64,000 nucleotides of DNA from the IMG/VR virus record IMGVR_UViG_3300045988_117710, one strand, 5' to 3'. The stretch's first letter is position 1. Every line of letters begins with the position of its first letter. This DNA comes from a virus. The notes under the pieces are model-generated. The model saw nothing but the letters and a program-made list of their open reading frames with translations, was not told the DNA's origin and searched no databases. Position numbers and translations under genes: made by a program. This document shows positions 3,520 through 55,388 of the stretch, in pieces.

Positions 3520-3531
3520 TAGGAGTTGATT

Positions 3532-4154: not shown

Positions 4155-4177
4155 ATTCTAGGAATCATCGAGTTGAT

Positions 4178-4187
4178 GTCGTATAAT
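4178..4187 (+). promoter_or_regulatory. class-A promoter-like motif, second copy (GTCGTATAAT)
   Basis: Tandem copy about 20 nt upstream of the gene that starts at 4206. Confidence 0.4.
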
Positions 4188-4205
4188 TGATTGAGAGGTG
4201 ATATT

Positions 4206-9200: not shown

Positions 9201-10544
9201 ATGAATAATTTAGTGATTGCAAATCCCGAAAGGTTGGATGATCAGTCTTTTAAAATTACTATTGCTGGAAAAGACTATGAATATGAAATTTCAGAAGATA
9301 AGGATATTGATAAAGTAATAGCCAAGTTAGTTCAATGGATTTCAAGAGGAGATGATTCTTTTGGAGGGTTATATGATTATATTAAACGTAGTTTCCAATT
9401 AGTTGGTGAGTACGAGGAACCTGTTGTTGAAGATGAGCTTCCTGAAGAACCAAAATCTATCTTACCATCTGACGGTCAAGATTTAGATGATGTTCAATCT
9501 AATGAACTAGAATTCAAAGTAGATATACTTTCTAGTAGTGAAGTTAGTGTTTCTCTTGGAGAATTTTCTGCAGTATTTAATCTAGCTGGTAATGCAGATA
9601 ATTTTGAGACTGAGTTGAGAGAATTAATTAAAGATGAAATGACTCTTAAAGATAGAATTGATTTAAATACTTTTCTTGTTAAAGAACTCGATACTGATAA
9701 TTCAGTAGATGTTTATAATCTATCTGGTTTGGTTCTTGATCCAAACTTTGAGATAGTTTCTAGTGTTGAAGGTGAAGAACTTACAGATTTAGCTGTGGAT
9801 GGAGAACATGAAGTTCCAGATATTGTTATCGGTGATACAACAGATGAGGTTGATATTCCTAGTGATGATGCCGAGGTTGTTGATACTGAAGAAGTTGTGT
9901 CTGATGAAGATACAGAAGATGATTTAGAAGATGAAGCTCTTAATGCTGAAGAAGATTTAACAGATGATTATGAACCTAGTGAGGATGAAGAGTCTGAAGA
10001 GGATGATTCAGATGAAGAGGATGATGAAGATTCTAAATCAAAGAAGAAATCAAAGAAGAAATCTAAGAAGTCAAAGAAGAAATCGAAGAAGAAATCCAAG
10101 AAAGAATCTTATGATGCTTTTGGTAATCTCTTAACTGAAGATGAGGTGTTTGATGGTGTAATTGATTTACCTGTTGAACCAACTGAAATAGATTTTACAG
10201 ACGAAGAAGTCGAAGATAAGTTTACTCTTGAAGATTTAATTGTTTCTGAAGATTTCCTAAGTAGTTTAAGAGATTTAGGTTTATCTTTATTCAAATTTAC
10301 TAATAAGGATAATAATTTAGAGAATTTATACTTTGTTGGTGGTATTAATAGTAATGATGGTACTCTTTACACTTTAACCTACCAAATGGGAGATTCGTAT
10401 AGTACATTAGATGGAGAATTTGAAGATCTATCTACTAATGAATATGAACTATCTAATATTGAGGACTTAACTATTGTTACTAACTATTTAAGTAAGTTAT
10501 TAGATTTGGTTTATAATAGAGAGTTAGGAGAGGACAATGAGTAA
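9201..10544 (+). CDS. highly acidic protein with a central Lys/Ser (KSKKK) tandem repeat
   Basis: 447 aa, rich in Asp/Glu. A KSKKKSKKKSKKSKKKSKKKSKK block is flanked by DDSDEEDDED. Confidence 0.55.
   Translation: MNNLVIANPERLDDQSFKITIAGKDYEYEISEDKDIDKVIAKLVQWISRGDDSFGGLYDYIKRSFQLVGEYEEPVVEDELPEEPKSILPSDGQDLDDVQSNELEFKVDILSSSEVSVSLGEFSAVFNLAGNADNFETELRELIKDEMTLKDRIDLNTFLVKELDTDNSVDVYNLSGLVLDPNFEIVSSVEGEELTDLAVDGEHEVPDIVIGDTTDEVDIPSDDAEVVDTEEVVSDEDTEDDLEDEALNAEEDLTDDYEPSEDEESEEDDSDEEDDEDSKSKKKSKKKSKKSKKKSKKKSKKESYDAFGNLLTEDEVFDGVIDLPVEPTEIDFTDEEVEDKFTLEDLIVSEDFLSSLRDLGLSLFKFTNKDNNLENLYFVGGINSNDGTLYTLTYQMGDSYSTLDGEFEDLSTNEYELSNIEDLTIVTNYLSKLLDLVYNRELGEDNE
10034..10106 (+). repeat. 12-nt tandem repeat (aagaagaaatca)n encoding the KSKK units
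   Basis: Direct tandem repeats with synonymous third-position variation. Confidence 0.7.
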
Positions 10545-11400
10545 GAAGGTAATTAAGTCTGTTGATGTTTTAGACGATATAAGAGTAAATCCTGAAGAAG
10601 GTAAGAAGACAATTCTTAAGGTTATTGATAAGGATGAGAACAGAGAAGATAGAATGAAGTCAGCTGATTCTGCTGAAGTATTTCCAACTCCTGCTGAACC
10701 AGTTATTAATGAAGCTGTTAGTTCTACATTAAATCAAAATGTTAAGGATTATTTAATTCAAGATTTAACTAAAGAAGATTTTGTTGGTGATGAGGATGTT
10801 AAAGATGTTTTAGATAAGGTTGATATCTTTAAGATTCTTAATTCAGTTGATGGTGATTTAACTGAATCTTATGGTACTAACTATGGAGATATTAATATTC
10901 TATTCTCTAGAAGTTCTAAAGATTGTATCCGTGAGTCAGCTCTTATTGAATACTCTACTTCTGGTAATAAGTCATATGTTTTAGGACTTAATATTTTAGA
11001 AGCGGAAGATAATAAAGTTAACTTTATAGTTAAATCTAGTTATGGTGTTGATATTTATTCTAAAGTTTGTACACCAAATCAAATTGCTAATACTGTTTAC
11101 AGATTCTTGGAAGCAGTTTATTTAAGAGATAAGTTTGCAAGTATTCTTAATGAATCAGTTGATTCTGATAGATGGGGTGAAATCATTAGTGATGTTAATG
11201 AGTTTGCAAAGAATATAGATGCTGGTAAAGATGTTCTTAAGATTAGTTATTCTGAAGATAACTCTAAACCTTTAGAAGTTACTATTGCTAGAGGAACTAA
11301 TAATCAGGTATTCGATGATGTTAGAAAATATATAGAAGATACTTACAGAGATGAAGTTGAAATAACTGATATCGATGATTCAAGTTTCTTACTAAAGTAG
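10537..11400 (+). CDS. hypothetical protein
   Basis: Overlaps the upstream stop. 287 aa. Confidence 0.5.
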   Translation: MSKKVIKSVDVLDDIRVNPEEGKKTILKVIDKDENREDRMKSADSAEVFPTPAEPVINEAVSSTLNQNVKDYLIQDLTKEDFVGDEDVKDVLDKVDIFKILNSVDGDLTESYGTNYGDINILFSRSSKDCIRESALIEYSTSGNKSYVLGLNILEAEDNKVNFIVKSSYGVDIYSKVCTPNQIANTVYRFLEAVYLRDKFASILNESVDSDRWGEIISDVNEFAKNIDAGKDVLKISYSEDNSKPLEVTIARGTNNQVFDDVRKYIEDTYRDEVEITDIDDSSFLLK

Positions 11401-11415: not shown

Positions 11416-14400
11416 ATGAATGGTAATCAATTAATTACAAAGCATTCTGCTAAATTTGATACTGTTGAGAAATCTAAAAGACCTGGAGTTCTAGCTACTT
11501 TGAGAGGTCCTGTTACTGGATGGAAACCTAATCGTAATGGTAGAACTTATTCTAGGGATTTATGGGTTAAAGCATTAAATTCTGATTATGTTAAGGAACA
11601 AGTTGCTCTTAATCATTTTGTTGGTGAAGCAGATCACCCAGAAGAAAGACTTGAACCAGTAATTCAAAATATGTCACACGCTATGAGAGATTTTGAATTT
11701 GATGATGCTAATCAAGAAGTTATTGCTACTATTGATATTCTAGATACTCCATGTGGAAATATGCTTAAGACTTTATATGATTATTCTGGAGCTTTAAGTT
11801 TTTCTACTAGAGGTTCTGGAGATGTTTTAGAAGATGGTGAAGTTGATCCAGAAACATATCAATTATTTGCCATTGATGCTGTTTTAAGACCAAGTTATGC
11901 AACAGCTACTGTTAGAAATCTTTTAACTGAAAGTGAATCTTTACATAAGAATAAAGATGTTAAGAAGGTTCTTGAATCTTATTCTGGTGAGAAAGAATTA
12001 GATGAGTCTGTTGATTGGGATTATTTTAATATATTCCATGATATTAACGATAAATATTTACCTGATTCTGGTGAAGGTGATAATATGGCCACTCAAACTG
12101 TAACAGCTGTTAATAAGTTAGTTTATAAGTGGTATAATGATGGTGATGTATATGATAATTCAACTGCTTCTGGTCTAGATGGTTGGGGAAATGATTTATC
12201 TGATTATGCTAACTGGCTTGCAAAGAATATAGATGGTTGTAAGGATATTCTAGATAGAATTTTTGAAATCCATTATGGTGATAATGGTGCTTATGAAGAT
12301 TTACTTAAGGATTTAGCAAATAATTGTTTAGATGAAAATTTACTTTCTGGTTTAGCTACTCAACCTAAGGAAGGTTCTGTTTATGAATGTTCTGGTGATT
12401 ATTCTTTTGATGAGAGTAGAAACTATGATGAAGAATATGATGAGTCTGAAAACTTAGAAGAGGTTGTTCGTGTATACGATGATGAGAAAGATTATAGTTC
12501 TGAATTAGAGGAAGTATTCAATATTGTTGGTGGTTTTATTAATAATGATTTCAAATCTAATACCAAGGATTATTTAAGATATTCTGGTTCTACTGATCGT
12601 GTAGATAGTAGTAAAGTATTTGATGGTTTAGCTAGTGCATTAGGAGCTGCTGGTTATATTGTTTCTAAAGATCGTGTTTCTCATGCACATAATATTGGTA
12701 ACAATAATGCCTATGAAATATTCAAGGATTCTGAATGTATTGGATTCTTAAATGTTAATAGTGGTATGTATGGTGAAGCATATGTATATGTTGAGAACCT
12801 ATCTAATGGTAGAGTTGGTGGTGCTTGGGAATTACATTCTAGAGGTACTTCTACTTTCAAAGAAGGTGAAGAATTAGGTAAGGTTAATACTAAAACTGAT
12901 TTATCAAAGAAATATATCTTTAATGACAAGGGTGTTGAAAGAACTGTAACTGAAGTTGAACCACTTGCTTATAGAGATGGATATAAGTTTAGAGAGATTC
13001 TAGATAATGGTTCAGTAGGTAAAGTTGTTCATACTATGAGTAAAGCTGATTTTGATTCTTTAAAGGAATTAACTGAAGATGCTGATAGTGTTGTAGCAAT
13101 TCCTGATGATGTTAAGGAAGCTGTTGAAACTGAAGTTTATGATGATAGAAACATTGATGTTAGAAGTTCTATGTTCAAAGGTAATGATTTTGTAGTTGAA
13201 GCTAGAAATGAGTTATCTGAAGATGAATTTACTAAGATTGTTGATAGAATTCAATATCATTTCAATAATTATGGTATTGTTTATGACTCTATTGAAGATG
13301 ATGACAATAATGTAATTGCTATTGATTGTGGTATGTCTGCTAGTGCTTATGAAGAGTACAAAGCAAATTCTGATGATTATACTCTTAATGATGAATCATT
13401 TACTATGTATAATGCTGATACAGATAAAACTGTTAGAGTTTACAAAGATGGTGGTAAATGGGTAGATGAAGATGGTAATCGTTATATGAGTTACCTAACT
13501 AAGTCTGATATTAAGAAGTATTTCAAAGGTAATTGGGTTGAATTAGATGAGTCTGAACAATTAAATGAGTATGGTGATACTAAAGATTATTCAGAAGATA
13601 TTCAAAAGTTATTTAAGAAATGGTTTAAGGATAATGCTGATTTAGGTATTCGTGCTTGGCAGGCAATGACTGATTCATATCATTTAGATATTGAAACTAT
13701 GGATAAGGGTGAAGGTTCTGAAAGAAGAAAACTTTACAAGGTTGTTAATAATTCACCATTTGTTGAAGTTGAAGATTGGGCTGATGAGATTGGTGAGTAC
13801 ATTGCAGATAATTTACATTCATTAAAGTATATCAAACATACTTTCAATGATAAGTCATTCTTTAGTGATGATGAAACTGCTGGTGATATTACTTGGTACT
13901 TTGTTCAACAAATTGGTATGCCAGATTTTGGTGATAATATATTTGATTCAGAGAAGTTATCTGAAGACAATGAACCTAAGACTACTAAAGAGTTTAGAAT
14001 TATAGATACTGAAACTGGTAAGATTCTTAAGGTATTTAAAGATGATGAAGAATCTAAAGGTTATGAAGAAATGAGAGCCATGGGTGAAGAACTTAAGAAG
14101 GCAGGTAAAGAAGATAACTTAATCTATAAAGAGTTTAAGGTTAAGAACAAACCTGAAAGACTTAAGGAAGATTCTACTTGGGCTGAGATTATGATTGATA
14201 GAGCTTTAGAGTCTGGTGTTAGAAAGACACAATATCAAGATGTTGATGGTGTTAAGGATCAGTATTATGTAGTTGCTAATTTCCAAGACGTTGGAACTAG
14301 AGCAGATGCAAGAAAGTATTGTAAAGCTCAAGGATGGAGTGCTGTTAATGATTCTACTTTAGATAAGGGAGTTATGTATAGATATCCTTTAGTTATTTAT

Positions 14401-15249
14401 ATTCCTGCTGATAAGCTTCCAGATGGTGTTCAAGTAATTAATGAAGCTGGTGTTAATTTAGATGTTAGTGCTGGTGTTGATTTACCAGATGATGCTGTTA
14501 GTGGTATTATAAGTGCTCTACCTGCATTACTTGCTTCTGATAAACCAGATTTTGATACATTCTGTGAAGAGAATTATGAAGCAATTAATAATGCTTATGA
14601 TGAATGTAAGGCAAGTGATTTAGGTATTTCAGTAGAAGAGTATTGGGCTATGGATGAACCTGTAGATCCTAAATACTGGGAGATGGTTGCTAGAGATATG
14701 TATGAAGATAGTAATAGTTTAGTTGAAGATGTTAATGATTCTCAAGAATACATTGATAAATTCAATGAACTATATAGCAAGTATTGTGTTGCTAGTAAAG
14801 AAGATGAAGAAGTTATTAAGTCTGAAGTGGTTGATTTACTTACTAATGCACCTGTAGGAACTGCTTTATATAGACTTTATAAAGATACTTCTAGTGGATG
14901 GACTAGTCGTGGTTCTTATTCTAATACTAGAACTGAAATTCATGAATATCTAAAGTCAGGTGAAAATGAATGGACAATTAATGGTCGTAAGAAAAATGAC
15001 ATGAGAGATGCTATGTTATCAATCTTATATAATCCTGGAGAGTTCATGACTAAGGAAGAAGCAGAAGCTCAAAAGAAAGAGCAATCTAAGAATGATACTT
15101 CTTCTCGTAGAGAGATTGTAAATGTTGGTACTGATTCAGCTGGCAATCCTGTAGGTAAGTCTACTAATACTGTAACTTATCCAAATAGAGAAGTTGAGTC
15201 TGTTGATTTCTTGGATGATTACTTTGCATATCATAAAGGTAACTTCTAG
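11416..15249 (+). CDS. putative prohead protease fusion protein: N-terminal HK97-family (S78/U35-like) prohead serine protease domain plus a ~1100-aa acidic extension
   Basis: Residues ~20-135 fit the prohead-protease pattern: G-x-(A/V)-x-x-W...R-x-G-x-x-x-x-x-x-W-x-K-x-L, then L-N-H (candidate catalytic His67), then G-A-L-S-F-S-T-R-G (candidate catalytic Ser). The remainder is Asp/Glu-rich and scaffold-like. C-terminus DDYFAYHKGNF. Confidence 0.45.
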   Translation: MNGNQLITKHSAKFDTVEKSKRPGVLATLRGPVTGWKPNRNGRTYSRDLWVKALNSDYVKEQVALNHFVGEADHPEERLEPVIQNMSHAMRDFEFDDANQEVIATIDILDTPCGNMLKTLYDYSGALSFSTRGSGDVLEDGEVDPETYQLFAIDAVLRPSYATATVRNLLTESESLHKNKDVKKVLESYSGEKELDESVDWDYFNIFHDINDKYLPDSGEGDNMATQTVTAVNKLVYKWYNDGDVYDNSTASGLDGWGNDLSDYANWLAKNIDGCKDILDRIFEIHYGDNGAYEDLLKDLANNCLDENLLSGLATQPKEGSVYECSGDYSFDESRNYDEEYDESENLEEVVRVYDDEKDYSSELEEVFNIVGGFINNDFKSNTKDYLRYSGSTDRVDSSKVFDGLASALGAAGYIVSKDRVSHAHNIGNNNAYEIFKDSECIGFLNVNSGMYGEAYVYVENLSNGRVGGAWELHSRGTSTFKEGEELGKVNTKTDLSKKYIFNDKGVERTVTEVEPLAYRDGYKFREILDNGSVGKVVHTMSKADFDSLKELTEDADSVVAIPDDVKEAVETEVYDDRNIDVRSSMFKGNDFVVEARNELSEDEFTKIVDRIQYHFNNYGIVYDSIEDDDNNVIAIDCGMSASAYEEYKANSDDYTLNDESFTMYNADTDKTVRVYKDGGKWVDEDGNRYMSYLTKSDIKKYFKGNWVELDESEQLNEYGDTKDYSEDIQKLFKKWFKDNADLGIRAWQAMTDSYHLDIETMDKGEGSERRKLYKVVNNSPFVEVEDWADEIGEYIADNLHSLKYIKHTFNDKSFFSDDETAGDITWYFVQQIGMPDFGDNIFDSEKLSEDNEPKTTKEFRIIDTETGKILKVFKDDEESKGYEEMRAMGEELKKAGKEDNLIYKEFKVKNKPERLKEDSTWAEIMIDRALESGVRKTQYQDVDGVKDQYYVVANFQDVGTRADARKYCKAQGWSAVNDSTLDKGVMYRYPLVIYIPADKLPDGVQVINEAGVNLDVSAGVDLPDDAVSGIISALPALLASDKPDFDTFCEENYEAINNAYDECKASDLGISVEEYWAMDEPVDPKYWEMVARDMYEDSNSLVEDVNDSQEYIDKFNELYSKYCVASKEDEEVIKSEVVDLLTNAPVGTALYRLYKDTSSGWTSRGSYSNTRTEIHEYLKSGENEWTINGRKKNDMRDAMLSILYNPGEFMTKEEAEAQKKEQSKNDTSSRREIVNVGTDSAGNPVGKSTNTVTYPNREVESVDFLDDYFAYHKGNF

Positions 15250-26204: not shown

Positions 26205-26234
26205 AAAGGGACTGGTTCTAGTCCCTTTATTTAT
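26205..26234. terminator. intrinsic terminator
   Basis: aagggact-ggttct-agtccctt hairpin, then T-tract. Confidence 0.6.
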
Positions 26235-26239
26235 ATATT
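26232..26239 (+). promoter_or_regulatory. class-B promoter-like motif TATATATT(ATTTTAGTTAA)
   Basis: Immediately upstream of the first MNKLFES-family gene. Confidence 0.4.
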
Positions 26240-26267
26240 ATTTTAGTTAATATTGAGGAGGATTTCA

Positions 26268-26576
26268 ATGAATAAGTTATTTGAATCTGTAGAAGGTTGT
26301 GACAAATATATTCTTTTAGAAAATGAATATCCTACTTCTATGAGTAGAGAGGAATATATTAGTACTTTAAAATCTAAAGTAAACAAGCTTGCAGATGAAT
26401 TTGCTAGTTTAGCTAATTTCTTTAATTCTTATATTGAAGATTCTGCTACTGGTGAAAGTATTGATTGTAATGAGTTTATTTGTATAGCTCAAGAAGAGTA
26501 CCCATTTGAAAATAGTTTTGATGAGAAAGCATATGAGTTTTCAAACTGGGCTGATAAGATTAATGAAATTAAGTAG
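26268..26576 (+). CDS. MNKLFES-leader family protein 1 (103 aa)
   Basis: True start is ATG 26268 after GAGGAGG (the track ORF begins at TTG 26253). N-terminus MNKLFESVEGCDKY. Confidence 0.6.
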   Translation: MNKLFESVEGCDKYILLENEYPTSMSREEYISTLKSKVNKLADEFASLANFFNSYIEDSATGESIDCNEFICIAQEEYPFENSFDEKAYEFSNWADKINEIK

Positions 26577-26585
26577 GAGGTAAAT

Positions 26586-29500
26586 ATGAACAAGTTATTT
26601 GAATCTGTTGATAATTTATTTGATTCTGGTAAGAGTCTTATTAATGAAGATTATCGTGATGATGTTATTAATGATTTAGGTATTGAACCTGGTTCTGATG
26701 AAGAAGCACAAGTTGATGAAATCCTTAATACAGTTCCAACTGTTTATGATGTTTTCACTTTATCTCAAGTTGATGTTAATGAGTATAAGTCAGATCTTTA
26801 TACTACTGTAGAAGATGAAGACCAAGCTTATGATATAGTTGCTGAACTTGGAGCTCAAGGTATTAATGCTTTTGTAGAAAGTAGAGATGCTAATGAAGAT
26901 GTTATAGTTCCTAACAATTTCTTATCTGGTCTTTATGCTAGGGATTTGAATGAATCTACTGAAGGGTTAAGTAAAGAAGATAAGATTTGTCGTTTAGAAG
27001 ATAAGATTAAGGAATGTAAAGATAGAATTGAAGAGATTGGTAATACTGAATTCTTCGATGATGGTTCTTATGAAGCAGGTTTAGAGTTAGAAGATAGAGC
27101 AATGGAAAGAGCTTCTCTTGAGTATGCTATTTCTGAATATCAAAAGGAAATAGATGAACTTAAAGGTGAAACTATTAATGAAGGTAGTAAGTTTGATTTA
27201 TATTCTATCAGAGGAGAAATCAGAGATGATGAAACTGGTAGATTAATGCTTCATACTAAGAATAAGAATAATGGGTTAGTTGGTTGTGCAAATTTCTTTG
27301 GTGATGGTTCAGATATGGTTACTGTTTACGAAGGTAATGGTGATGGTTCTGATGACAAGAGTATGGGATTCGATGAGTTCCTAGCAAACTATGATTATGT
27401 TCTTGCTGATGAAGATGAACAACCATTTGGTGTTACTGAAGCTTCTGAAGAGAAAGTATTTGTTAAGAAAGTTAAAGGTCCTAATGGTCAATTCTTTGAT
27501 GTTTATAAGAAAGATGGTAAGTTTGTGGATGAATATAATAATGAACTTACTGCAGAAGAATTAAAAGATTATAAGTTAGTTGAAGATGAATCTAATGGTT
27601 CTACTGCTATTTTATATCAAGTTACTCCTGGTAAGACTAGAGAATATGGTTTTGAATCTTTAAAGATGTTAGATAAGTTTGGTATTGAGCTTAGTTTAGA
27701 TAATTATACTGAAGTTGCTAATATTGATTATAGTAAGTATACAGATGCTACTGATACTAATGCAATTCTAGAAGCAATATTCAGAGAAGGTAATACTAAT
27801 CAAGATATGAGAGTTGAATTCCCTACTATGAGATCTGTTTCTATGTCTGATATTGTTTTATTAGATGGTAGATATTACTATTGTGATGACTTTGGTTGGA
27901 CAGATGTTACTGATCGTTTAACTGGTGTTAATGAGTCTGAAGGTGGAGATTTAAAATCTCAAGTTGTTGAGTATTTAACTTCTAAATATGGTGAAGGTTT
28001 TGAATTAGAAGACAATGTTAATGGTTTTACTAATCAAGATGAAATTATTGATTCTATTGTTAATTCTTATGAAGGAAATGAAAATTTAACTGTTGCTGAG
28101 TTTATAGATTCTTTAATTGAACCTCATGGTTTAATTGTTGTTAAGTCTAAAGGTTTATCTGAAGGTACTTCTGCTAAACGTATAGCAAGATATAATGAAT
28201 TTGATAATGGTAGAGTTTTACATTCTTGGAAAGATATGACAGATGAAGAAGCTGAAGAGCTTGCTAAACAAAAGTCAATTGAAGATCCAAATAATGTTTA
28301 TTATGTATGTAATGATAATGTTATGAATCCTACTTCTGATAAGGTTTGGTATAATGGTAAGTCTTATGATTTCAGTGATGTTAAGTTTAGTGAAACTGGT
28401 ACTTACTGTGAATCTGAAGAAACTGATCCTAGATTAGATACTTTTGCTGAGTTATATTATAAGTATCAAGATGGTGAATCTCATGAATGGACAAGAGAAG
28501 AAGTTATTGATTGGATTAATGATGAAATTAAGTTAGGTGATACTTCATTTACTTTAGATGATGAAACTATTGATTTATTATTAGGTTTCCAACATGATTT
28601 ACATCAAGCTGATATAGAAGATTTAGATGAAGCTTCTAAACCTTTAGTTAAAGATAAGTTCTATATTGATGGTGTTGGTCCAGAGTTTGATGGTTACCAC
28701 GATCCTAGTGTTCTTTGGAATGGTTGGGAATGTCCATTCTTTACTAAAGAGGTAGCAGATGAGATAACTAAAACTTTTACTGATGAGTCTGTTACTTTTG
28801 AATATGATGAAGCTGGTAAGAAATATATAATTACTTGGAATGGTGAAGATACTGAAGAAGTTCCTATGACACGTCGTGAAACTGTTGATGGTGAGTTAGA
28901 TTTATTCCCATTAGGTTATTATGGTTGGTGTTGGAATAAAGCTTCTGATGATTTAGAAGAGTCTAATAAATTAGATGAAACAGCTTGGAAGGGTACTCTT
29001 AAGTCTGGTTCTGCTTTAAGAGCCCTAATTAATAATCCAGATGATACTATTGAATATTATCAAGCTGTATTAGATAAGATTAAAGATGTTTGTAATGAAG
29101 CAATTCCAATGTGTGATGATGAATATTATGCTAATGGATTCCAATCTTTAATAGATGATATTGAATGTATTTATTATGATGAAGAATTAGATGAAGGTAA
29201 TGTTGATTATATTCTAGATGGTCTTTGGGATTGGGCTGATGGTGCTAAGTTATTCGTTGCCTTAGGTGAATCTGAAGTAGTTATGGAAGAAGATTCTAAT
29301 TATACTAATAAATATCGTTGTGTTACTGCAGGATATGATACTGTAGAAACATTTGATTCAAAGGATGATGCAATTGCATTTGCTAAAGAGAATGACAGGG
29401 TGTATTCAGTAATGTCTGATATTTATCAAGGTGATATGTTAATTAGTGTTGGATTAAATGATATTTGGTCTAAGTATGATGAAGATTTAACTGAAGCTTC

Positions 29501-29816
29501 TAGTGTAGATGGTTTAGTTACTAAGTTTGTTGAGTTACCATATGGTGATTTCAAAGCAAATAATGCCATTGGTGTTCTTAATGATGGTACAGTGTTTTGG
29601 GTAGATAGTGAGAATGAAGCTTATTCAGTTCCTTGTTCTTACGATGAGTTAAAGAGAGCAATGTATGGTAAAGAACAAGATGATTGGATGGAATTTTCTC
29701 AAAGTTTCACTAGAATAGAAGACCCACTAGAAACTAAGATTATGGTTGCTATTGGACGTTACTCTGAAGATGTTCTAGATTATCATGAAACTTTTAAAGA
29801 TGGGTTACCATTCTAA
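26586..29816 (+). CDS. MNKLFES-leader family protein 2, giant member (1076 aa)
   Basis: N-terminus MNKLFESVDNLFDSGKSLINEDYRDDVINDLG. Acidic, with a coiled-coil segment (ICRLEDKIKECKDRIEEI...). No recognisable catalytic motif. Confidence 0.6.
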   Translation: MNKLFESVDNLFDSGKSLINEDYRDDVINDLGIEPGSDEEAQVDEILNTVPTVYDVFTLSQVDVNEYKSDLYTTVEDEDQAYDIVAELGAQGINAFVESRDANEDVIVPNNFLSGLYARDLNESTEGLSKEDKICRLEDKIKECKDRIEEIGNTEFFDDGSYEAGLELEDRAMERASLEYAISEYQKEIDELKGETINEGSKFDLYSIRGEIRDDETGRLMLHTKNKNNGLVGCANFFGDGSDMVTVYEGNGDGSDDKSMGFDEFLANYDYVLADEDEQPFGVTEASEEKVFVKKVKGPNGQFFDVYKKDGKFVDEYNNELTAEELKDYKLVEDESNGSTAILYQVTPGKTREYGFESLKMLDKFGIELSLDNYTEVANIDYSKYTDATDTNAILEAIFREGNTNQDMRVEFPTMRSVSMSDIVLLDGRYYYCDDFGWTDVTDRLTGVNESEGGDLKSQVVEYLTSKYGEGFELEDNVNGFTNQDEIIDSIVNSYEGNENLTVAEFIDSLIEPHGLIVVKSKGLSEGTSAKRIARYNEFDNGRVLHSWKDMTDEEAEELAKQKSIEDPNNVYYVCNDNVMNPTSDKVWYNGKSYDFSDVKFSETGTYCESEETDPRLDTFAELYYKYQDGESHEWTREEVIDWINDEIKLGDTSFTLDDETIDLLLGFQHDLHQADIEDLDEASKPLVKDKFYIDGVGPEFDGYHDPSVLWNGWECPFFTKEVADEITKTFTDESVTFEYDEAGKKYIITWNGEDTEEVPMTRRETVDGELDLFPLGYYGWCWNKASDDLEESNKLDETAWKGTLKSGSALRALINNPDDTIEYYQAVLDKIKDVCNEAIPMCDDEYYANGFQSLIDDIECIYYDEELDEGNVDYILDGLWDWADGAKLFVALGESEVVMEEDSNYTNKYRCVTAGYDTVETFDSKDDAIAFAKENDRVYSVMSDIYQGDMLISVGLNDIWSKYDEDLTEASSVDGLVTKFVELPYGDFKANNAIGVLNDGTVFWVDSENEAYSVPCSYDELKRAMYGKEQDDWMEFSQSFTRIEDPLETKIMVAIGRYSEDVLDYHETFKDGLPF

Positions 29817-29829
29817 TTAGGAGGTTAGT

Positions 29830-30162
29830 ATGAATAGTTTATTTGAAAGTGTTGACGCTTGTTTTGAATCTGATGTTATAGTTGAATCAGATTCAAAACT
29901 TGGTTCTATTTTTGTTGCTGAGGTTGGTTACAATGGTGTAGTCGGTACTTGTAGAGGTGCTGGTTCTACTCCTGAAGAAGCCAAAGCAAATGTTATTAAA
30001 TTCTTCAAGCAAGTTTATCCTAGTGTATTAGAAGATTTATTAACTAAAGAAGATTATCAAGATGTTTCTGAAGATAAAGCTCTTGAAGATTGGTATGGTA
30101 TCAATGTATTCGATTTAAGTTCTGGAGCTACTTGTGAGAGTGGAGAAACTTTAAAAGGATAA
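29830..30162 (+). CDS. MNKLFES-leader family protein 3 (110 aa)
   Basis: N-terminus MNSLFESVDACFESD. RBS TAGGAGG. Confidence 0.6.
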   Translation: MNSLFESVDACFESDVIVESDSKLGSIFVAEVGYNGVVGTCRGAGSTPEEAKANVIKFFKQVYPSVLEDLLTKEDYQDVSEDKALEDWYGINVFDLSSGATCESGETLKG

Positions 30163-30165
30163 TTT

Positions 30166-30495
30166 ATGAATAAGTTATTTGAAAGTATAGATAATTTATT
30201 TGAATCTGATATTCTAACTCTAGATGACTTCCTTAGTCATCTAGATGCCTATATGGCAGAGCAATCTATTTTCTTTGAACCATTAGGTGGTTATATTGTC
30301 TATGATGGAGAGTATAGGTTTGTTTATTATGAATTATTAGATACTAATACAACTTATAGTCGTGATGCAAAGAGAAAGCATTATCGTATATTAAGTTATG
30401 ATGGTTCTACTTTTGTTGAGAATCGAATTACAGCTCCTATGTATAATGACTATATTAGATTAGGCATGGTTAGGGAGTATAGTAGAGAGGTATAG
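30166..30495 (+). CDS. MNKLFES-leader family protein 4 (109 aa)
   Basis: N-terminus MNKLFESIDNLFESD. Confidence 0.6.
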   Translation: MNKLFESIDNLFESDILTLDDFLSHLDAYMAEQSIFFEPLGGYIVYDGEYRFVYYELLDTNTTYSRDAKRKHYRILSYDGSTFVENRITAPMYNDYIRLGMVREYSREV

Positions 30496-30504
30496 GAGAT
30501 TATT

Positions 30505-31002
30505 ATGAATAAGTTATTTGAGTCTGTTGATGACTTATATGAATCTGGAAGAAGTTTAGTTGTTGAAGATACTGAAGATTTTGTAGATGATGTTATTACT
30601 GATCCTTATGATTTAGGGTTTACTGAAGAAGATTTACAAAATAATCTTAATGTAAAGTTTACTGAATATGGTGAATTAGATAGTGCTGAACAAGAAGACT
30701 TTCCAGAATGTGATGCAGTATTATATTTTGATGTTTACTATGGAGATTCTAAAGTTGGTGAAACTCAATGTTATGGTGCTAAAGAAGATAATGTTGAAGA
30801 GTATTTTCCTCAAGTAATTGAAAATCTTGTTGGTAATACTTTTGGGTTAGACTTTAGTGAAATTAAGAAAGAAGAAAAACCTTTAGGTGAATCTATTGAA
30901 TATTGTTTAGTTTTACCAGAAGTAAAATCTGATGAAGAAATGAATAAGGTAATTGAAGCTCTTAAGGATTTAGGTTACGAAGCTTATTCTTGGACTCGTT
31001 AA
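30505..31002 (+). CDS. MNKLFES-leader family protein 5 (165 aa)
   Basis: N-terminus MNKLFESVDDLYESGRSLVVEDTEDFVDDVITD. The leader homology with member 2 extends to about 35 aa. Confidence 0.6.
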   Translation: MNKLFESVDDLYESGRSLVVEDTEDFVDDVITDPYDLGFTEEDLQNNLNVKFTEYGELDSAEQEDFPECDAVLYFDVYYGDSKVGETQCYGAKEDNVEEYFPQVIENLVGNTFGLDFSEIKKEEKPLGESIEYCLVLPEVKSDEEMNKVIEALKDLGYEAYSWTR

Positions 31003-31074: not shown

Positions 31075-32883
31075 ATGGATAATACTAATTTCCTAGATAA
31101 GATTATTGATTATAACAAATCTCAATATATTTCGAAAGCTACTAAGATTAGAGAGATAGTAGCACCAGAAGTTTGGATTAACGATCCTTACTATTGTGGT
31201 GAGGATGGTAAGTTTTTATATCCATTCTGGAAGAAACACTTTGTTGAGATTTTTTCTCGTCCAAATGAGAAGAGAATTAATGAGATTATAATTACTGGTT
31301 CTTTAGGAACTGGTAAGACTACATTCATGACTTTCTGCTTCTTAAGACTTTTATATGAGCTTAGTTGTTATGATTGTCCACAGATTCTTTATAATTTGAT
31401 GTCAAGTACTTCTATTGTTCTTATGTATTTGTCTATCAATAAGGATATAGCAGAGAATACTGGTTATGGGGATTTGAGACAGAGAATTGATACTATTCCA
31501 TACTTCATTGAGAATTATCCTAGAAATCAAAGATTGTCTAATGATATTGAGTTCCCACAATCTAATATTCGTGTAGGTTCTGGTTCTAGAGCTTCTCATG
31601 CAATTGGTACTAACTTAATTGCTGCGGCTCTTGACGAATCTAACTTCAAAGGTACGGGTGAAGCTGCTACTGATGTCAACTCAATGTCTAAAGCACAACA
31701 AGTTTATAATGCTTTACGTAGACGTGGAGAAAACCGTTTTACCGTTGGTGGTATTGATTATTCATTGTCTATCTTACTTTCTTCTGCAACTACTTCAAAC
31801 TCTTTTACAGAGGCACGTATTGCTCATACTGCTTCTAATGAGCATGTTTATCATATTAATGCTAAGGTTTATGAAGTTAAACCTGCAGGAACTTATAGTA
31901 GTGAGAAGTTTATAGTATTTATGGGTAATGACCAATTGGATCCTACTCTTGTTGAGACTGTTCCAGCTCTTAATAATATTATGGATTCGGTTGGATTACC
32001 AAGATTTGCAGATACAGTCAATCTCGTAGATAGTATTAACTCATTGAGAGAAGATATTAGGGCAATGTTTGAACTTGTTCCTATGAATTTTATTGAGTCT
32101 TTTAGAACAGATGTTGTTAAGTCTTTACAAGATATTTGTGGTGTTCCTGTTAACCCTATTGGTAGATTGTTTACAGCAAAGAGATATTATAATGAGTGTA
32201 TTGACAATCAAGTTACACATCCATTTATTCAAGATGAGTTTATTCTTTCTACTGGTTCATCTGTTACTGGTATTGAGTATTTAAGGTCTGATTGGAAACC
32301 TTTAGAACCACATAAGACTAGATTTGTTCATATCGACCAATCTACAGCATCCGATAAGACTGGTATTTGTATGGGATTTATAGACCATTTTGAGAATATT
32401 AATGGTGAGAATAGACCGGTTATTTATGTAGATTTTATGTTAGCTGTTAATCCACCATTGGCACCAGAAAAGATTCATATTGCCAAGTGTCGTCAGTTAG
32501 TTTTAGATATAGCCAAGAAGTTTAATCTTAAGATTGGTAAATTCACTTACGATACCTTTGCATCTCAAGAGTCTGTTCAACAGCTTCAACAAGAAGGTAT
32601 TAATGCTGATTTTCAATCAGTGGATAGAACAGTTGATGCTTATCTTGAGTTGTGTGATTTATTTTATGAGAAGAGAATTCATATCTATTCTTATCCGAAG
32701 TTTGAGAAGGAGTTCTTTAATTTACAATACTATCGTGATAGGAAGAAGATAGACCACTTACCAGAGTTTTCAAAGGACGTTTCTGATGCTGTTGCAGGAA
32801 TGATTCATAATTGTACTCATAATGATGCTCAGTTGGATGCACTTCGTAAGATGGATGCTGAAAACATTCTTAAGTGGTTATAA
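31075..32883 (+). CDS. terminase large subunit
   Basis: Start ATG 31075 after AGAGAGGTGG (the track ORF begins inside the terminator). ATPase Walker A GSLGTGKTT and Walker B-like AAALDESN. C-terminal RNase-H-like nuclease region with conserved acidic residues (HIDQSTASDKTG...DTFASQ...DAV). Confidence 0.7.
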   Translation: MDNTNFLDKIIDYNKSQYISKATKIREIVAPEVWINDPYYCGEDGKFLYPFWKKHFVEIFSRPNEKRINEIIITGSLGTGKTTFMTFCFLRLLYELSCYDCPQILYNLMSSTSIVLMYLSINKDIAENTGYGDLRQRIDTIPYFIENYPRNQRLSNDIEFPQSNIRVGSGSRASHAIGTNLIAAALDESNFKGTGEAATDVNSMSKAQQVYNALRRRGENRFTVGGIDYSLSILLSSATTSNSFTEARIAHTASNEHVYHINAKVYEVKPAGTYSSEKFIVFMGNDQLDPTLVETVPALNNIMDSVGLPRFADTVNLVDSINSLREDIRAMFELVPMNFIESFRTDVVKSLQDICGVPVNPIGRLFTAKRYYNECIDNQVTHPFIQDEFILSTGSSVTGIEYLRSDWKPLEPHKTRFVHIDQSTASDKTGICMGFIDHFENINGENRPVIYVDFMLAVNPPLAPEKIHIAKCRQLVLDIAKKFNLKIGKFTYDTFASQESVQQLQQEGINADFQSVDRTVDAYLELCDLFYEKRIHIYSYPKFEKEFFNLQYYRDRKKIDHLPEFSKDVSDAVAGMIHNCTHNDAQLDALRKMDAENILKWL

Positions 32884-33225: not shown

Positions 33226-34989
33226 ATGTCTGGACCTTTAAACGATAAATTATTGGACGAGGCAGTCAACAAGACTCTTAATGAAAAGAGTTATGAGACT
33301 AACAAGTCTTTTATTGCTGGTATGTCTTTATCACAATTTAGTGACTTTATTCACTCTGACCAAATGTCAGATTTAAATGATAAGGCACTTTATGATGAGA
33401 TGTTACTAGATGCCACAGTTCGTAATGTAATTGATGCTTATGTTGCTGAGATTGTAATTCGTGATACTAATACAAATCATATTTGTACTGTTTTATCTGA
33501 AGATGCTAAACTTGTCGAAGAGTTAAACTCTTTTCTATTTGATAATATCAATATAGATGCTTTAGCAAATAATATTGTATTAAGAATGTTAGCTTATGGA
33601 TGTGCTCCATGTGAGTTAGCTTATATTGATTCAACTACAGATTCTCAATGGCAATTATTCTCTGAAAGTGAGAAGTTAAAAGATATGACTTCTGAAAACT
33701 TATTAGAGAGTTTATCCAAGAAGGATGTTAAAGAGTTTCTTGTTGAAGGTAAGAAACTACGAGTTGTTTCTAATAAGAAAGCTCTTAAGGAAGATGTTCT
33801 TGAGTTAAGAAAGAAACAGTTCCCTGTTAGATGGTATTTAAATCAATTACCTATTTGGTCTTTGAAGGTTTTAAATTCTAAGGGTAAAGATATCGCTTAT
33901 TTAGATCCAACTGTAACTGATAGAGTTTATGATGGAAGAACTCTTGTTCCTTTTATGAACATTTCTTCTAATGATTCAACTAGTATTAGTTCAACAGATG
34001 GTTCTGATAGTTATACTATATCAGCATCTGAAAGTTTTCTTAAACCTGCTAGAAAAGCGTATAGAGTTTTAAGTTCTTTTGAGGATTTATTATTAATCCA
34101 TGCACTTACTACTTCAATTAACTATCGTATTTTTAGTGTTGAAGTTGGTAATTTAGATGAGAAACAAACTCCAGCTCTTTTAGGAGATATTAAGAAGAGA
34201 ATTAATGAGAATGAATCATTCAATTTAGAGACTTCATTCTATAATGCTTCTATGACAGGTGTTCCTCTAGGAGCGTCAATCCTTATTCCAACAAGAAATG
34301 GGGTTGGAACTATTTCAGTTCAACAAATTGATAATAGTTTTGGTACTAGTGAATTAGGTGATTTTAATTATTTCAAGAATAAATTAGCAACTGCTTTACA
34401 TAGTAATTCACTTTTAACTGGTTCTACTGATAATGCAGGTGGACTTGATTCTGGTGGTTCTATGTCTGTTCTTGATGATAGAGCATCACAATATATAGAG
34501 TTATATAGAAATATATTTGCTTCTGGTATTGAATCTTTATGTGATTATTATTTAAGATTAACTAGAACAGAGTCTGCTTATTCAAAGTTAACTACTTTTA
34601 GTATTAGACTTGCTAGAAATATAGATGCTGAACAAGTTAATTTCTTAAAGGGACAATCTGAAGCTGCAAGTTCTCTACAACAAGTTGTTAGAGCACTTAA
34701 AGATTTAGGTTTAGATATGAAGAATTTCTCTGATACTCAATTATTACTAGTTCGTAAATTCTTGGGTAATGAGATTGCAGATTCTTTAGCTCTTGAGATG
34801 GAGAGTGCTAGTTCATTGTCTAGTCGCAAACCTCCTATTGTAGGAGATGATTCTACTGGTGGTGAGTTAGGTTCTACTGGTGATGATTCATTTGATTCAT
34901 TCGAAGTAAGTGATGAAGAAGTTGACAATGCAGTTTCTGGTTCTGATGAAGAACAATTAACTGTTGAAGAACCTGGTATTGAATTATAA
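33226..34989 (+). CDS. putative portal protein
   Basis: 587 aa. Downstream of the terminase. Acidic C-terminal tail. Assignment is by position and size only. Confidence 0.4.
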   Translation: MSGPLNDKLLDEAVNKTLNEKSYETNKSFIAGMSLSQFSDFIHSDQMSDLNDKALYDEMLLDATVRNVIDAYVAEIVIRDTNTNHICTVLSEDAKLVEELNSFLFDNINIDALANNIVLRMLAYGCAPCELAYIDSTTDSQWQLFSESEKLKDMTSENLLESLSKKDVKEFLVEGKKLRVVSNKKALKEDVLELRKKQFPVRWYLNQLPIWSLKVLNSKGKDIAYLDPTVTDRVYDGRTLVPFMNISSNDSTSISSTDGSDSYTISASESFLKPARKAYRVLSSFEDLLLIHALTTSINYRIFSVEVGNLDEKQTPALLGDIKKRINENESFNLETSFYNASMTGVPLGASILIPTRNGVGTISVQQIDNSFGTSELGDFNYFKNKLATALHSNSLLTGSTDNAGGLDSGGSMSVLDDRASQYIELYRNIFASGIESLCDYYLRLTRTESAYSKLTTFSIRLARNIDAEQVNFLKGQSEAASSLQQVVRALKDLGLDMKNFSDTQLLLVRKFLGNEIADSLALEMESASSLSSRKPPIVGDDSTGGELGSTGDDSFDSFEVSDEEVDNAVSGSDEEQLTVEEPGIEL

Positions 34990-53151: not shown

Positions 53152-53868
53152 ATGGTAGTTGTATATGGTGTTAATAACAAGTGGAGTGATTATGTACTTG
53201 TTTCGATTAAGTCTTTAGTTACTAATAATGATGTCAGTAAGATTTATCTTTTAGTTGAAGACTTTATTGATACTAGTATGTTTTCTTCTATTGATATTGA
53301 ACAGATTAGATATGTTGATGCCTTGTCAACATATATCAATTCTACCAATAAGAATACTTTCTTTAGTGAAGCTTGTATGGTTCGTTTATTGCTTCCAAAG
53401 CTTCTGAAGGAAGATAAGGTTCTATGGTTAGATTCTGATACTATTGTTGATGGAAGTATTGAGGGGTTGTGGAATATAGATTTGAGTAACTATTATGTAG
53501 CAGGTTATCCAGATTCTGGTATGGATAGTTATTCTGGTTATAGTCGTGAGGGTGAGTCATTAGATTTGTATATTAATAGTGGAGTGTTACTTATGAATCT
53601 TTCATTGATTAGAGAGTGTTCTGTTGATGATGAGATGTTTAGGTTGATTAACTCTTATGAGTATTTATATCCAGATCAGGATGTTATTAATGTTTCTTGT
53701 AGAGACAAGATTTATCCGATTTCGATTATTTACAATTATTTTGATTTCAATAGAAATATTGATAATATAGTCATTTATCATTGGGCTGCTCAAGATAAGA
53801 GTAATTGGGTATATGATTTACCTTTTGGTGATAAATGGATTAAGTATAAGGAGATGTTATATGAATAG
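53152..53868 (+). CDS. family GT8 glycosyltransferase (LPS alpha-1,3-galactosyl/glucosyltransferase-like)
   Basis: GT8 N-terminal Rossmann region, DxD motif LWLDSDTIV, and YINSGVLLMNL. Confidence 0.65.
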   Translation: MVVVYGVNNKWSDYVLVSIKSLVTNNDVSKIYLLVEDFIDTSMFSSIDIEQIRYVDALSTYINSTNKNTFFSEACMVRLLLPKLLKEDKVLWLDSDTIVDGSIEGLWNIDLSNYYVAGYPDSGMDSYSGYSREGESLDLYINSGVLLMNLSLIRECSVDDEMFRLINSYEYLYPDQDVINVSCRDKIYPISIIYNYFDFNRNIDNIVIYHWAAQDKSNWVYDLPFGDKWIKYKEMLYE

Positions 53869-55309
53869 GTTATTTGAGTCTGTTAATAGTTTCTTTGAAT
53901 CTGATGGTTTAGACAAGATTAGTGAAGATTTTATTCCTAATTCTCTTAATATTTGTTGTCCTGAATGTGGTTCTAATGAATATTATGAAATAGATGGTGC
54001 TGAGTATGATGATTATCAAGAAGTTATCTACAGATGTGAGAAATGTGGTCATGAAGAGAAAGATGAGATTTCTTTTGATGAGTTAGAAGAGTCAGATAAT
54101 TCTCAAGCCACTATTTTAGATTTTGAAGAAACTGGTGGTGGTTGTCTTAATTATGTAGGTGAAGTTGGTGATTACAACTTTGTTGGTGAAATTGATGGTA
54201 TTTTAGAGTTCTTTGATAAGAAGTTTGGTATTACTTCTTGGGAAGCTTATTCTAATATTGAAGATGAAGCTTACGGTGCTTACTCAGATTATGTTGAGAC
54301 TGGAGAATATAATGGTAAGTATGATAAAGATATTCAAGGTACTTATGATTTTGAACAAAAGTATGCTGAGTATAAACCAGAATATGTTTCTGCTGTTGCT
54401 GATGCTCTTAAGTCTTATGCTGATAGTAATATAAGTAATTTCGTTTATTCTTCTTTAGTTTATGACGAAGTTGAGAGATTAAAAGGTTCTTTAGAAGAGT
54501 CTACTCTTGTTGAAGCTGGTTCAAAGATAGATCCTGCCAAAGCATATGTAACTATTTATACTAATTATTATGATGGTATGGGTGATTTTAGTGATAGTTA
54601 TGAGTATATCACAAGTCTTGCTGATGATTGTGGTATTGAGTTTGATGAAGATTCTATTGATTCTTTTAGAGAGTTAAATTCTTTAGCAAATAAGGTTATC
54701 GCTTTTATTTATAATAATCATCCAGATATGTTTAGAGATATTTGTTCTGATTTAATTGATTCTATTGATGTTGACTATCTTGCTGATACTTTAGAACATA
54801 AACAAGGTGTAGTTGAATGCTTTAATGTTCTTAAAGATTTTGTTCCTGATTCAAGTAAGGTTGATGAAATACTTTCTAAATTACAAAGTGTTAATGTTGA
54901 TATTAGATTAATTGCTCAAGAATTTCAAAGATATTTCCATGATAATTATGAACCATGGACTTTCCTAGGAACTACTACTGGACCTAGAGTTTATAATGGT
55001 TTATTCGAATGTCCTACAGATTATGAAGTTGTTTCTGCTGATTATTTTAACTATGCTGGTAGACCTTCTGATATGTTAGATCATATTGGTTATGGATGGA
55101 AACAAACTGATAATGGTGTTCAAGCTGATTTAATTGGATTTAGACATAGTAGTAATGGTCATGCTGCTGTATATGACCAACCTCCTGTTGCTTATGGATA
55201 TTCTACTGTTGTTAATAATTCTAACAAGGAAGAGAAGTTCAAAGAAATGGCTGATACTCTAACTTCTAAAGCAAAAGAAATCAAGAGTCAATATAATTTA
55301 GGTAAATAA
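53861..55309 (+). CDS. MNKLFES-leader family protein 6 (482 aa) with zinc ribbon
   Basis: True start ATG 53861 (MNRLFESVNSFFESDG) after AAGGAG, overlapping the GT8 stop. Zinc ribbon CCPECGSNEYY...RCEKCGHEE. Confidence 0.6.
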   Translation: MNRLFESVNSFFESDGLDKISEDFIPNSLNICCPECGSNEYYEIDGAEYDDYQEVIYRCEKCGHEEKDEISFDELEESDNSQATILDFEETGGGCLNYVGEVGDYNFVGEIDGILEFFDKKFGITSWEAYSNIEDEAYGAYSDYVETGEYNGKYDKDIQGTYDFEQKYAEYKPEYVSAVADALKSYADSNISNFVYSSLVYDEVERLKGSLEESTLVEAGSKIDPAKAYVTIYTNYYDGMGDFSDSYEYITSLADDCGIEFDEDSIDSFRELNSLANKVIAFIYNNHPDMFRDICSDLIDSIDVDYLADTLEHKQGVVECFNVLKDFVPDSSKVDEILSKLQSVNVDIRLIAQEFQRYFHDNYEPWTFLGTTTGPRVYNGLFECPTDYEVVSADYFNYAGRPSDMLDHIGYGWKQTDNGVQADLIGFRHSSNGHAAVYDQPPVAYGYSTVVNNSNKEEKFKEMADTLTSKAKEIKSQYNLGK

Positions 55310-55354: not shown

Positions 55355-55362
55355 TATATATT
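55355..55362 (+). promoter_or_regulatory. class-B promoter-like motif TATATATT(ATTTTAGTAAG)
   Basis: Upstream of family member 7. Confidence 0.4.
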
Positions 55363-55388
55363 ATTTTAGTAAGTATTGAGGAGATTAT

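Follow-up and report, generated by a model that had tools for sequence, protein, structure and literature searches.

Seven genes in a 64,000-nt stretch of viral DNA (IMG/VR record IMGVR_UViG_3300045988_117710; the whole stretch is referred to here as the window) encode proteins whose bodies are unrelated and whose N-termini share one short leader, which we take, at a probability of roughly 0.65, to be a protease-cleavable capsid-targeting propeptide of the kind used by phage T4. In T4, 10-residue propeptides known as capsid-targeting sequences (CTSs) take internal proteins into the prohead core, and the prohead protease gp21 cleaves after L/I-x-E (PMC9026906). An earlier note, made from the letters of this DNA, had proposed such a leader, and that reading is supported, computationally only, by the strictly N-terminal position of the leader, by the T4-type head genes of the phage, by a recurring cleavage-like motif and by the swap of protein modules between leader-tagged proteins and a prohead protease fusion.

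A shared N-terminal leader on seven genes

A six-frame peptide search found seven plus-strand open reading frames (ORFs) that start with MN[KSR]LFES[VI][DEN], at 26268, 26586, 29830, 30166, 30505, 53861 and 55389. The first five form a cluster directly upstream of the large terminase gene (TerL, 31075-32883), and the same search returned the two further members, at 53861 and 55389, both points in agreement with the earlier note. The slash in the sequences below and throughout marks a candidate cleavage position.

Leader gene 1: 26268..26576, + strand, 102 aa; MNKLFESVEGCDKYILLE/N..., without the second LF.S element; profile score 35 bits
Leader gene 2: 26586..29816, + strand, 1076 aa, net charge -158; modular polyvalent-type cargo
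Leader gene 3: 29830..30162, + strand, 110 aa; MNSLFESVDACFESDVIVE/S
Leader gene 4: 30166..30495, + strand, 109 aa; MNKLFESIDNLFESDILTLDD; homologue P0028
Leader gene 5: 30505..31002, + strand, 165 aa, net charge -32; directly upstream of TerL and present in all strain variants
Leader gene 6: 53861..55309, + strand, 482 aa; MNRLFESVNSFFESD..., followed by a zinc ribbon at aa ~29-65
Leader gene 7: 55389..56153, + strand, 254 aa; directly upstream of the tail sheath gene

When the 68 window proteins were compared all against all, the leader was the sole similarity linking these genes, reaching ~33 residues between 26586 and 30505 and ~45 between 26586 and 53861. Among the bodies, BLASTP gave no pair below E = 0.05, so that the claim of a shared start on otherwise unrelated proteins holds, with all starts at the predicted positions; the sizes proposed for the cluster (103, 1076, 110, 109 and 165 aa) are also right, save that the first gene encodes 102 aa from its ATG. 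A ribosome binding site (RBS) of the GGAGG/AGGAG type, which had been attributed to every copy, precedes six of the seven, with a weaker AAAGGA at 30166. At the DNA level, a 26-nt leader consensus, allowing up to three mismatches, occurs five times in the window versus zero times in 100 shuffles.

A profile built from 27 family members found all members of the family at 18 bits or more and the seven window members at 30-44 bits, versus 6.9 bits for the best non-member overall and 5.9 bits for the best among window ORFs; therefore, the window contains exactly seven members. The family size of seven inferred earlier is thus correct for the window but too low for the genome, which holds at least one more member outside it (the P0056 family) and hence at least eight leader genes at three or more loci. 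A 550-aa acidic protein (38684-40336) that starts MNNFYDSIDKVDFTSIFEED (MNNFYDSIDKV) was considered as an eighth window member and rejected, as it does not register with the profile; it is kept in all strain variants, and its resemblance to the leader is faint.

An HMM search of the leader against proteomes, proposed in the earlier note, was carried out in full with HMMER on 1.84 billion representative proteins (E <= 0.001). It returned 25 matches, two of which are repeat-protein artefacts, and all 23 true matches align from residue 1, on bodies of 31-1076 aa. The matches come only from this phage clade, and no T-even internal proteins (Ips) or other T-even proteins were retrieved, in line with the statement in the earlier note that the signature matched no leader its author could name. 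Together with members read from fetched contigs, 28 distinct leaders are available, and their consensus is M-N-[KR]-L-F-E-S-[VI]-D-x-L-F-[SEDN]-[ST]-[DGN]-x-x-[LVI]-[ILV]-x-E. In a distant relative (L019), whose TerL is 61% identical, four copies of the leader fall within a span of 20 kb, and one of these keeps a syntenic place ahead of the tail sheath gene.

The 28-member alignment replaces the 14-aa leader first described by one of ~21 aa. Its hydrophobic pairs fall at residues 4/5, 11/12 and 18/19, a spacing of seven residues, and its helical hydrophobic moment (muH 0.42-0.55) is equalled by at most 1.3% of shuffles; judged by its sequence, an amphipathic helix of ~21 residues is thus the best description of the leader. 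A secretion or lipoprotein signal peptide, which would have a positively charged n-region and then a hydrophobic core of at least 10 residues, was considered and discarded by inspection: the leader is acidic, polar residues alternate along it, and its hydrophobic runs never exceed two. Of the two L-x-E cleavage sites originally read in the leader, the first, LFE6/S7, is conserved (F5-E6-S7 is kept in 28/28 leaders and L4-F5-E6 in 27/28), whereas the second is not, with Glu at the second 'LFE' position in just 9/28. Most leaders have a third hydrophobic pair followed by x-E ([LIV][LIV]xE) near residue 21, and this third site near E21 is, from the alignment, the likelier end of the propeptide.

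The conservation appears to be that of a peptide. Among 17 distinct DNA copies, the invariant Ser7 is encoded by TCT in 10 and by AGT in seven, Glu6 by GAA or GAG and Phe5 by TTT or TTC, in proportions near the genome-wide codon use. A change between TCT and AGT needs two substitutions by way of non-serine codons. In L019, the KLFESVD core persists at differing distances from the start codon (MSKLFES, MSNKLFES, MGKLFES, MRGNKLFES). RNAalifold, applied to positions -30 to +48, predicted no conserved RNA structure (-0.83 kcal/mol, no covariation support). A cis-acting RNA element at the 5' ends of these ORFs, which the earlier note had named as a finding that would overturn its reading, was thus ruled out by the weak fold energy and the free synonymous variation, and the sequences argue that selection on the leader acts on the peptide, not on the RNA. 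The statement that the leader is conserved at the nucleotide level must be qualified in the same way: five copies are almost the same over their first 26 nt, but synonymous codons vary at the invariant residues.

Head genes, late-type promoter-like motifs and a recurring cleavage-like motif

Judged by its gene content, the phage is a large uncultured myovirus, a distant member of the T4 superfamily, with genes for a gp6-like baseplate wedge, DnaB, clamp loader, DNA polymerase and primase, as well as UvsX, tail sheath and tube, endolysin and GroEL. The window has 31.7% G+C, carries all its genes on the + strand and is identical in sequence to part of a 179,133-bp ENA contig (ERZ28576703; HMPC12-1_SAMN00034694 scaffold_33); the phage is present in many assemblies, on contigs of 179-188 kb. 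One window protein is present in 32 blocks of a public assembly collection, and 23 contigs of up to ~182 kb were read for it; the sample names alone suggest human metagenomes as the origin. Megablast of 8 kb against INPHARED and a terminase-based scan of IMG/VR found no relative, and the best tblastn matches of TerL, in Vibrio and Maribacter phages, are only ~30% identical. An exact leader pattern had no match in IMG/VR and a degenerate one matched only two contigs there, both unrelated (L001 and L002, see below); degenerate patterns likewise had no match in JGI metagenomes and GTDB genomes, and a word-index protein search with the leader alignment retrieved nothing.

The features on which the assignment to a T4-type head mainly depends, with the promoter-like motifs of the leader genes, are the following.

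Late-type promoter-like motif: 26232..26250, + strand, TATATATTATTTTAGTT, ahead of the leader cluster; an identical 16-mer lies ahead of 55389
Second copy of the late-type motif: 55355..55371, + strand, ahead of leader gene 7
Large terminase gene (TerL): 31075..32883, + strand, a late gene with the same promoter type as the cluster and directly downstream of it
Portal gene, T4 gp20-type: 33226..34989, + strand, Pfam PF07230, E = 2.8e-26
Prohead protease fusion gene (g11416): 11416..15249, + strand, S77/gp21 fold at aa ~15-167, then cargo modules over a further ~1,100 aa
Candidate self-cleavage sites in the protease gene: LLTE172/S (nt 11923-11931), VLE187/S and LDE197/SVD (nt 11998-12006)
Gene g10537: 10537..11400, + strand, 287 aa, adjoining the protease gene, with an internal ILNE/SVDSD (aa 204-210)

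The motif TATATT-N3-6-TAG[AT]A has 11 matches in the window versus 2.7 expected, all on the + strand, and nine of these stand immediately ahead of a gene or operon; it precedes the terminase gene, several tail and structural operons and 55389 (e.g., 8875, 31047, 42301, 47342 and 55357), and the copy at the 26268 cluster has one mismatch to the consensus. A second motif, TCGTATWAT, has 14 matches versus 0.67 expected, all on the + strand, and precedes replication and early-type genes (e.g., 4146, 15272, 18961 and 25833). The two motifs partition the genes within the genome and thus support the label 'late-type'. The motif noted earlier ahead of the cluster is therefore real and shared with TerL and the tail operons, although its consensus is the form given here.

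The prohead-protease domain previously seen at 11416 is well supported. Its protein matches Pfam Peptidase_S77 (PF03420) at 28.7 bits, against a cut-off of 27 bits, and PHROG 207 at E = 9e-32, and the catalytic residues H74 and S130 are invariant in 31 homologues of 35-70% identity. An AF2 model of residues 1-260, built on these homologues, is confident over residues 15-167, and its best match in the PDB is T4 gp21 (5JBL; Foldseek probability 1.00, target-normalised TM 0.66). Together with the portal and with a gp23-family capsid gene (PF07068), which lies outside the window and was recovered from a same-species contig (L020) and from L019, this protease makes up a T4-type head gene set; the L020 capsid protein aligns to T4 gp23 from its residue 87 onward, starting at gp23 residue 101.

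The linker that follows the last strand of the protease fold (...RPSYPTATV) reads x-[LA]-[TSA]-E/S-[EV]-[ND] in nearly all 31 homologues. Its E172 is invariant, one of only two invariant columns past the fold, and is located in a segment modelled with low confidence (pLDDT below 50 at aa 169-177); in three homologues the linker reads LTESVD or LTESVN, almost the core of the leader. The last of the candidate sites, LDE197/SVD, falls exactly at the start of the first cargo module of the fusion. C-terminal self-cleavage is predicted for this protease by analogy with gp21-type enzymes, in which self-cleavage is C-terminal (PMC5694885).

The capsid propeptide is likewise rich in such sites, with five [LI]xE in its first 66 residues versus four in the other 398 and a proteome average of 1.25 per 100 residues. 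At residues 18-23 it has I-L-E-S-V-E, and we estimate, from residue frequencies that we take to be typical, that chance alone would give a protein of this kind a hexamer of this type in fewer than one case per thousand. In the window proteome the tetrapeptide ESVD occurs seven times versus 0.8 expected, and its three copies outside leaders all fall either in the protease gene or in g10537, the gene just upstream, whose product is by its sequence a possible core or scaffold substrate. Thus, as far as sequence can tell, L-x-E/S-[VE]-[DN] recurs where cleavage is expected, in the protease linker and the capsid propeptide. Two genes upstream of the protease, at 9201-10544, lies a 447-aa protein of net charge -0.20 per residue with a run of KKKSKKKSKKSKKKSKKKSKK, a scaffold/core candidate without a family match.

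One of the two IMG/VR matches to the degenerate leader pattern (L001, UViG_3300050120_000361, 208 kb, 52% G+C) belongs to an unrelated jumbo phage that encodes an S77 protease along with a portal of T4 type. Its region 1692-5754 has NMNKLFE/SVDSPGS, including the exact 9-mer MNKLFESVD, ~100 residues into a probable capsid protein, HNKLFE/SAGP after the protease domain and, in a scaffold-like protein rich in Q, DQLFEA; the match is suggestive only, because about one chance match was expected from the pattern scan. The other (L002, UViG_2706796524_000001, 241 kb; 2988-3014) has an ORF that starts MNKLFESVDD and continues into a Cys-rich body, and it may be a chance match.

Cargo modules, protease fusion and strain variation

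The bodies behind the leader behave as exchangeable cargo. The 1076-aa protein has a YodL-like domain at aa 343-441 (E = 1.6e-8), a domain characteristic of polyvalent proteins, for which delivery alongside DNA has been predicted (PMC5512222), and a PHROG 9945 module at aa 691-798; its modules also occur in P0045, P0048 and P0050, and the module at aa 76-210 of the 53861 protein is shared with the leader protein P0042, so that modules are shuffled among the leader proteins themselves. Searches of the cargo against Pfam, PHROGs and PDB sequences found only the YodL-like domain, the zinc ribbon and the function-unknown PHROGs 9945 and 3939, with no enzymatic or anti-restriction domain detected in the 1076-aa protein by domain searches. 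A single-sequence AF2 model of the 165-aa cargo was unusable (pLDDT 51). By analogy with the T4 Ips 1-3, an anti-defence role of the cargo is plausible.

The exchange extends to the protease gene. Whereas the L019 protease is a stand-alone protein of 222 aa, that of the window phage is fused to ~1,100 residues, of which aa 212-344 match a 753-aa leader protein of L019 (36% identity, E = 1e-15) and aa 550-690 match the leader protein P0050 (42% identity, E = 3e-21). These matches indicate that cargo modules interchange between leader-tagged and protease-fused forms, and the presence of the same cargo either on a component of the prohead core or on the leader is as expected if both attachments do the same job. 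The first module of the fusion (aa ~199-345; 12010-12450; VDWDYFN...NKLVYKWYNDGDVYDN...) is also more than 60% identical to a common stand-alone protein of ~150 aa with a poly-acidic C-terminus and no Pfam family (e.g., P0163, on 202 contigs). Similarly, a 531-aa leader-tagged protein of L019 contains a module with a homologue (34% identity, E = 2e-13) in an untagged 107-aa protein of the window (47909-48232), whose N-terminus is MNYVNEVFEAVSGVD.

The fusion ends ...EVE1261/SVDFLDDYFAYHKGNF, and the next gene, g15303, ends in the same tail, E/S[VI][DT]..DDYF.[FY]H.GN[FY] (15181-15249 and 16320-16388, respectively); stand-alone proteases of relatives end in a related tail, DDM[ML]F[ML]LNHP[KR]L. 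Judged from these two genes only, the tail may be a second, C-terminal capsid address. It can be likened to the C-terminal cargo-loading peptides of encapsulins and to the tail of HK97-type proteases, here placed after E/S. A wider and more tentative proposal, to which we give rather less than an even chance, is that the phage clade possesses a modular cargo-cassette system with two addresses, in which an N-terminal leader (a peptide address and a DNA homology patch) and a C-terminal protease-derived tail would each direct cargo, and modules would move freely among leader-tagged, tail-tagged and protease-fused forms.

In strains of 92-99% DNA identity, the cluster upstream of the terminase holds five, three or two genes, with three in L013/L014 (93, 610 and 165 aa) and two in L009 (682 and 165 aa). 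Leader gene 1 encodes 93 aa in L013/L014 and is absent from L009, leader genes 3 and 4 are missing together from L009 and L013/L014, and the 682- and 610-aa variants of the 1076-aa gene differ by module-sized indels; likewise, the 254-aa gene encodes 415 aa in L015-L017 through one extra module. In L013 and L009, the DNA upstream of the 165-aa gene is the sequence found at 29830 in the window and the DNA downstream is that found at 30505, with the switch point within a few bases of the start codon, in the RBS and leader. The same strain-variable behaviour has been described for the ip loci of T-even phages (PMC3012670, PMC12373910).

Alternatives, known systems and further features of the genome

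Under the capsid-targeting reading, the tagged proteins would be made late in infection, together with the head proteins, and the ~21-residue amphipathic helix would dock them on the core of the assembling prohead. After closure of the shell, the gp21-family protease would cut past Glu, at LFE6/S7 and probably a second time near [LIV]-x-E21, so that the cargo is released within the head and would enter the next host cell together with the DNA. In the DNA itself, the repeated RBS and leader would offer a homology patch for the gain, loss and swap of cargo genes. Docking, cleavage, packaging, ejection and the action of the cargo are steps that we infer only.

Several observations weigh against this reading. 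Since the second LFE is not conserved and Glu is found in register at the third site in only ~15/28 leaders, the mature N-terminus is not confidently predictable, and a cut at E6 only would take off no more than six residues, so that the cargo would keep the greater part of the helix. The leader proteins are all acidic (net charge -8 to -158 at sizes of 102-1076 aa), whereas T4 IPI-III are basic DNA-binding proteins (PMC9026906), so that acidic proteins packed beside DNA need explaining; the whole window proteome is acidic, and the leader proteins are more acidic than its median. No cargo matched a known anti-defence family in the Pfam, PHROGs and PDB sequence searches, and no leader copy was found in the 2-22 kb read around TerL in the relatives L003, L005-L008, L010 and L011. 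Three member genes adjoin tail or baseplate genes, not head genes.

The position of those three genes is also what speaks for a different destination, in which the leader, cleaved or not, would address proteins to the tail lumen, baseplate or neck rather than the head interior: 55389 lies directly upstream of the tail sheath gene with 53861 before it, a leader gene of L019 stands in the same place before the sheath gene, and P0056 lies between a methyltransferase gene and baseplate genes. We consider this unlikely, as the main cluster adjoins the terminase and portal genes, the leader motif is common to the capsid propeptide and the protease linker and not to tail proteins, and the cargo modules interchange with the prohead protease fusion; moreover, T4-type phage genes are scattered, so that neighbourhood is weak evidence.

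The amphipathic, heptad-like periodicity of the leader and the variation of its second and third Glu positions would fit a retained docking or oligomerisation helix, a handle for a phage or host partner that is never cleaved or packaged. A generic helix, however, leaves unexplained the F5-E6-S7 kept in 28/28 leaders and its identity with the motif of the protease linker, and both the equivalence with the protease fusion and the late co-expression with head genes speak against it, which makes this quite an unlikely explanation. Still less probable is a role of the leader as N-terminal degron or adaptor tag, by which an AAA+ unfoldase and an HslV-like peptidase, both encoded by the phage, would time the removal of the tagged proteins. 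Genes for a Clp_N-AAA+ protein and a proteasome/HslV-like protein do lie ~4 kb past the window end on same-species contigs, but we know of no degron of this form, and the motif in the capsid propeptide and protease linker, the swap with protease fusions and the late promoter would all go unexplained.

That the conservation belongs to the nucleic acid only, as a translation-initiation cassette or recombination patch that is incidentally translated, agrees with the strain indels that break at the RBS and leader and with the near-identity of the first 26 nt in five copies, but it is the most improbable explanation of all given that Ser7 (TCT/AGT) and Glu6 (GAA/GAG) codons switch at genome-wide frequencies, that no conserved RNA structure is predicted and that the peptide core outlasts changes in start-codon distance in L019. 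A recombination role is compatible with the peptide role and probably secondary to it.

The capsid-targeting reading places the leader closest to the T4 CTS of IPI, IPII, IPIII and Alt, which is likewise a short N-terminal peptide on otherwise unrelated, non-essential-looking proteins (PMC9026906, PMC3012670, PMC12373910), with an L/I-x-E site for a gp21-family protease and a head of gp20/gp21/gp23 type, and the T-even ip loci are similarly strain-variable loci in which only the leader is conserved (PMC3012670, PMC12373910). In contrast to the T4 CTS, with which it has no sequence homology, the leader described here is about twice as long and has three heptad-spaced hydrophobic pairs, its cargo is acidic, up to 1076 aa long and made of shuffled modules where that of T4 is basic, and its genes number at least eight per genome, spread over at least three loci. 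Residues 1-6 have the outline M-x-K-[hydrophobic]-x-E, similar to the start of the T4 CTS, which we take to be MKTYQE. As the profile search retrieved no T-even Ips, the leader is to be regarded as CTS-like in its working and not as a member of the T-even CTS sequence family; it is the leader sequence that is new, and the principle is the well-known one of T4 (PMC9026906, PMC3012670, PMC12373910).

Comparable processing occurs in phiKZ, 201phi2-1 and SPN3US, where a homologous protease cuts the propeptides of ejection and inner-body proteins after Glu, at several redundant sites, and self-cleaves C-terminally, and where the SPN3US paralogues gp53 and gp54 have an identical 15-residue N-terminus (PMC5694885). 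However, the propeptides of those phages are mostly longer than 100 aa and do not form a family-wide signature, their cleavage motif is A/S/G-x-E instead of L-x-E, and an inner body and virion RNA polymerases are present in them. The cargo may also be compared with the polyvalent proteins of phages and conjugative elements (Iyer et al. 2017, PMC5512222), large multi-module proteins predicted to enter the host with DNA, in view of its modules shuffled between proteins and of the YodL-like domain, which is among the domains listed for them. It differs in lacking a detected enzymatic or known anti-restriction domain and in its delivery, which would proceed by an N-terminal address or protease fusion and not by MuF/portal fusion or zincin self-processing.

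If the capsid-targeting reading is true, the leader would flag the packaged and probably injected proteins of a widespread uncultured phage clade directly from metagenomes, and no fewer than 28 distinct cargo proteins can be listed so far. The corresponding injected proteins of T4 specifically inhibit restriction systems of the host (PMC12373910), and the cargo set would therefore be a reasonable place to seek new counter-defence or host-takeover functions. The CTS principle, so far one of small basic proteins, would also come to include protease fusions and cargo that is very large, acidic and modular, which bears on the amount and kind of protein that a T4-type head carries and on the engineering of heads as protein carriers; nothing is overturned, since the mechanism proposed is that of T4. 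Should the two-address system be true as well, it would amount to a natural, programmable loading of large acidic multi-domain effectors into a T4-type head, and the injected proteome of uncultured human-associated phages could be catalogued by means of these sequences.

Other features of these genomes were observed alongside. A terminase intein with a LAGLIDADG endonuclease, which the window lacks, is present in a 97%-identical strain (L009 3493-6132) and in a 60% relative (P0016). In relatives with 57-65% identical terminase, three to five genes each start with MKxxRxxIFETNSSSTHSL, and within a genome their bodies have no BLASTP similarity to one another and no Pfam match. This start may represent another N-terminal signature family or a fast-evolving domain, and the conserved C-termini suggest a true domain. 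The genes are located as follows.

Genes with the FETNSSSTH start, L003: 14995-19866
Genes with the FETNSSSTH start, L005: 16684-21803
Genes with the FETNSSSTH start, L007: 17508-20819
Genes with the FETNSSSTH start, L010: 15812-20491

Auxiliary genes of the window encode a GroEL-like chaperonin (16415-17887), LuxS (37685-38146) and SAM synthetase (62086-63258), and just past the window end (L015 11748-17684) are genes for TelA, the Clp_N-AAA+/HslV-like pair, ribosomal protein L9 and Thg1.

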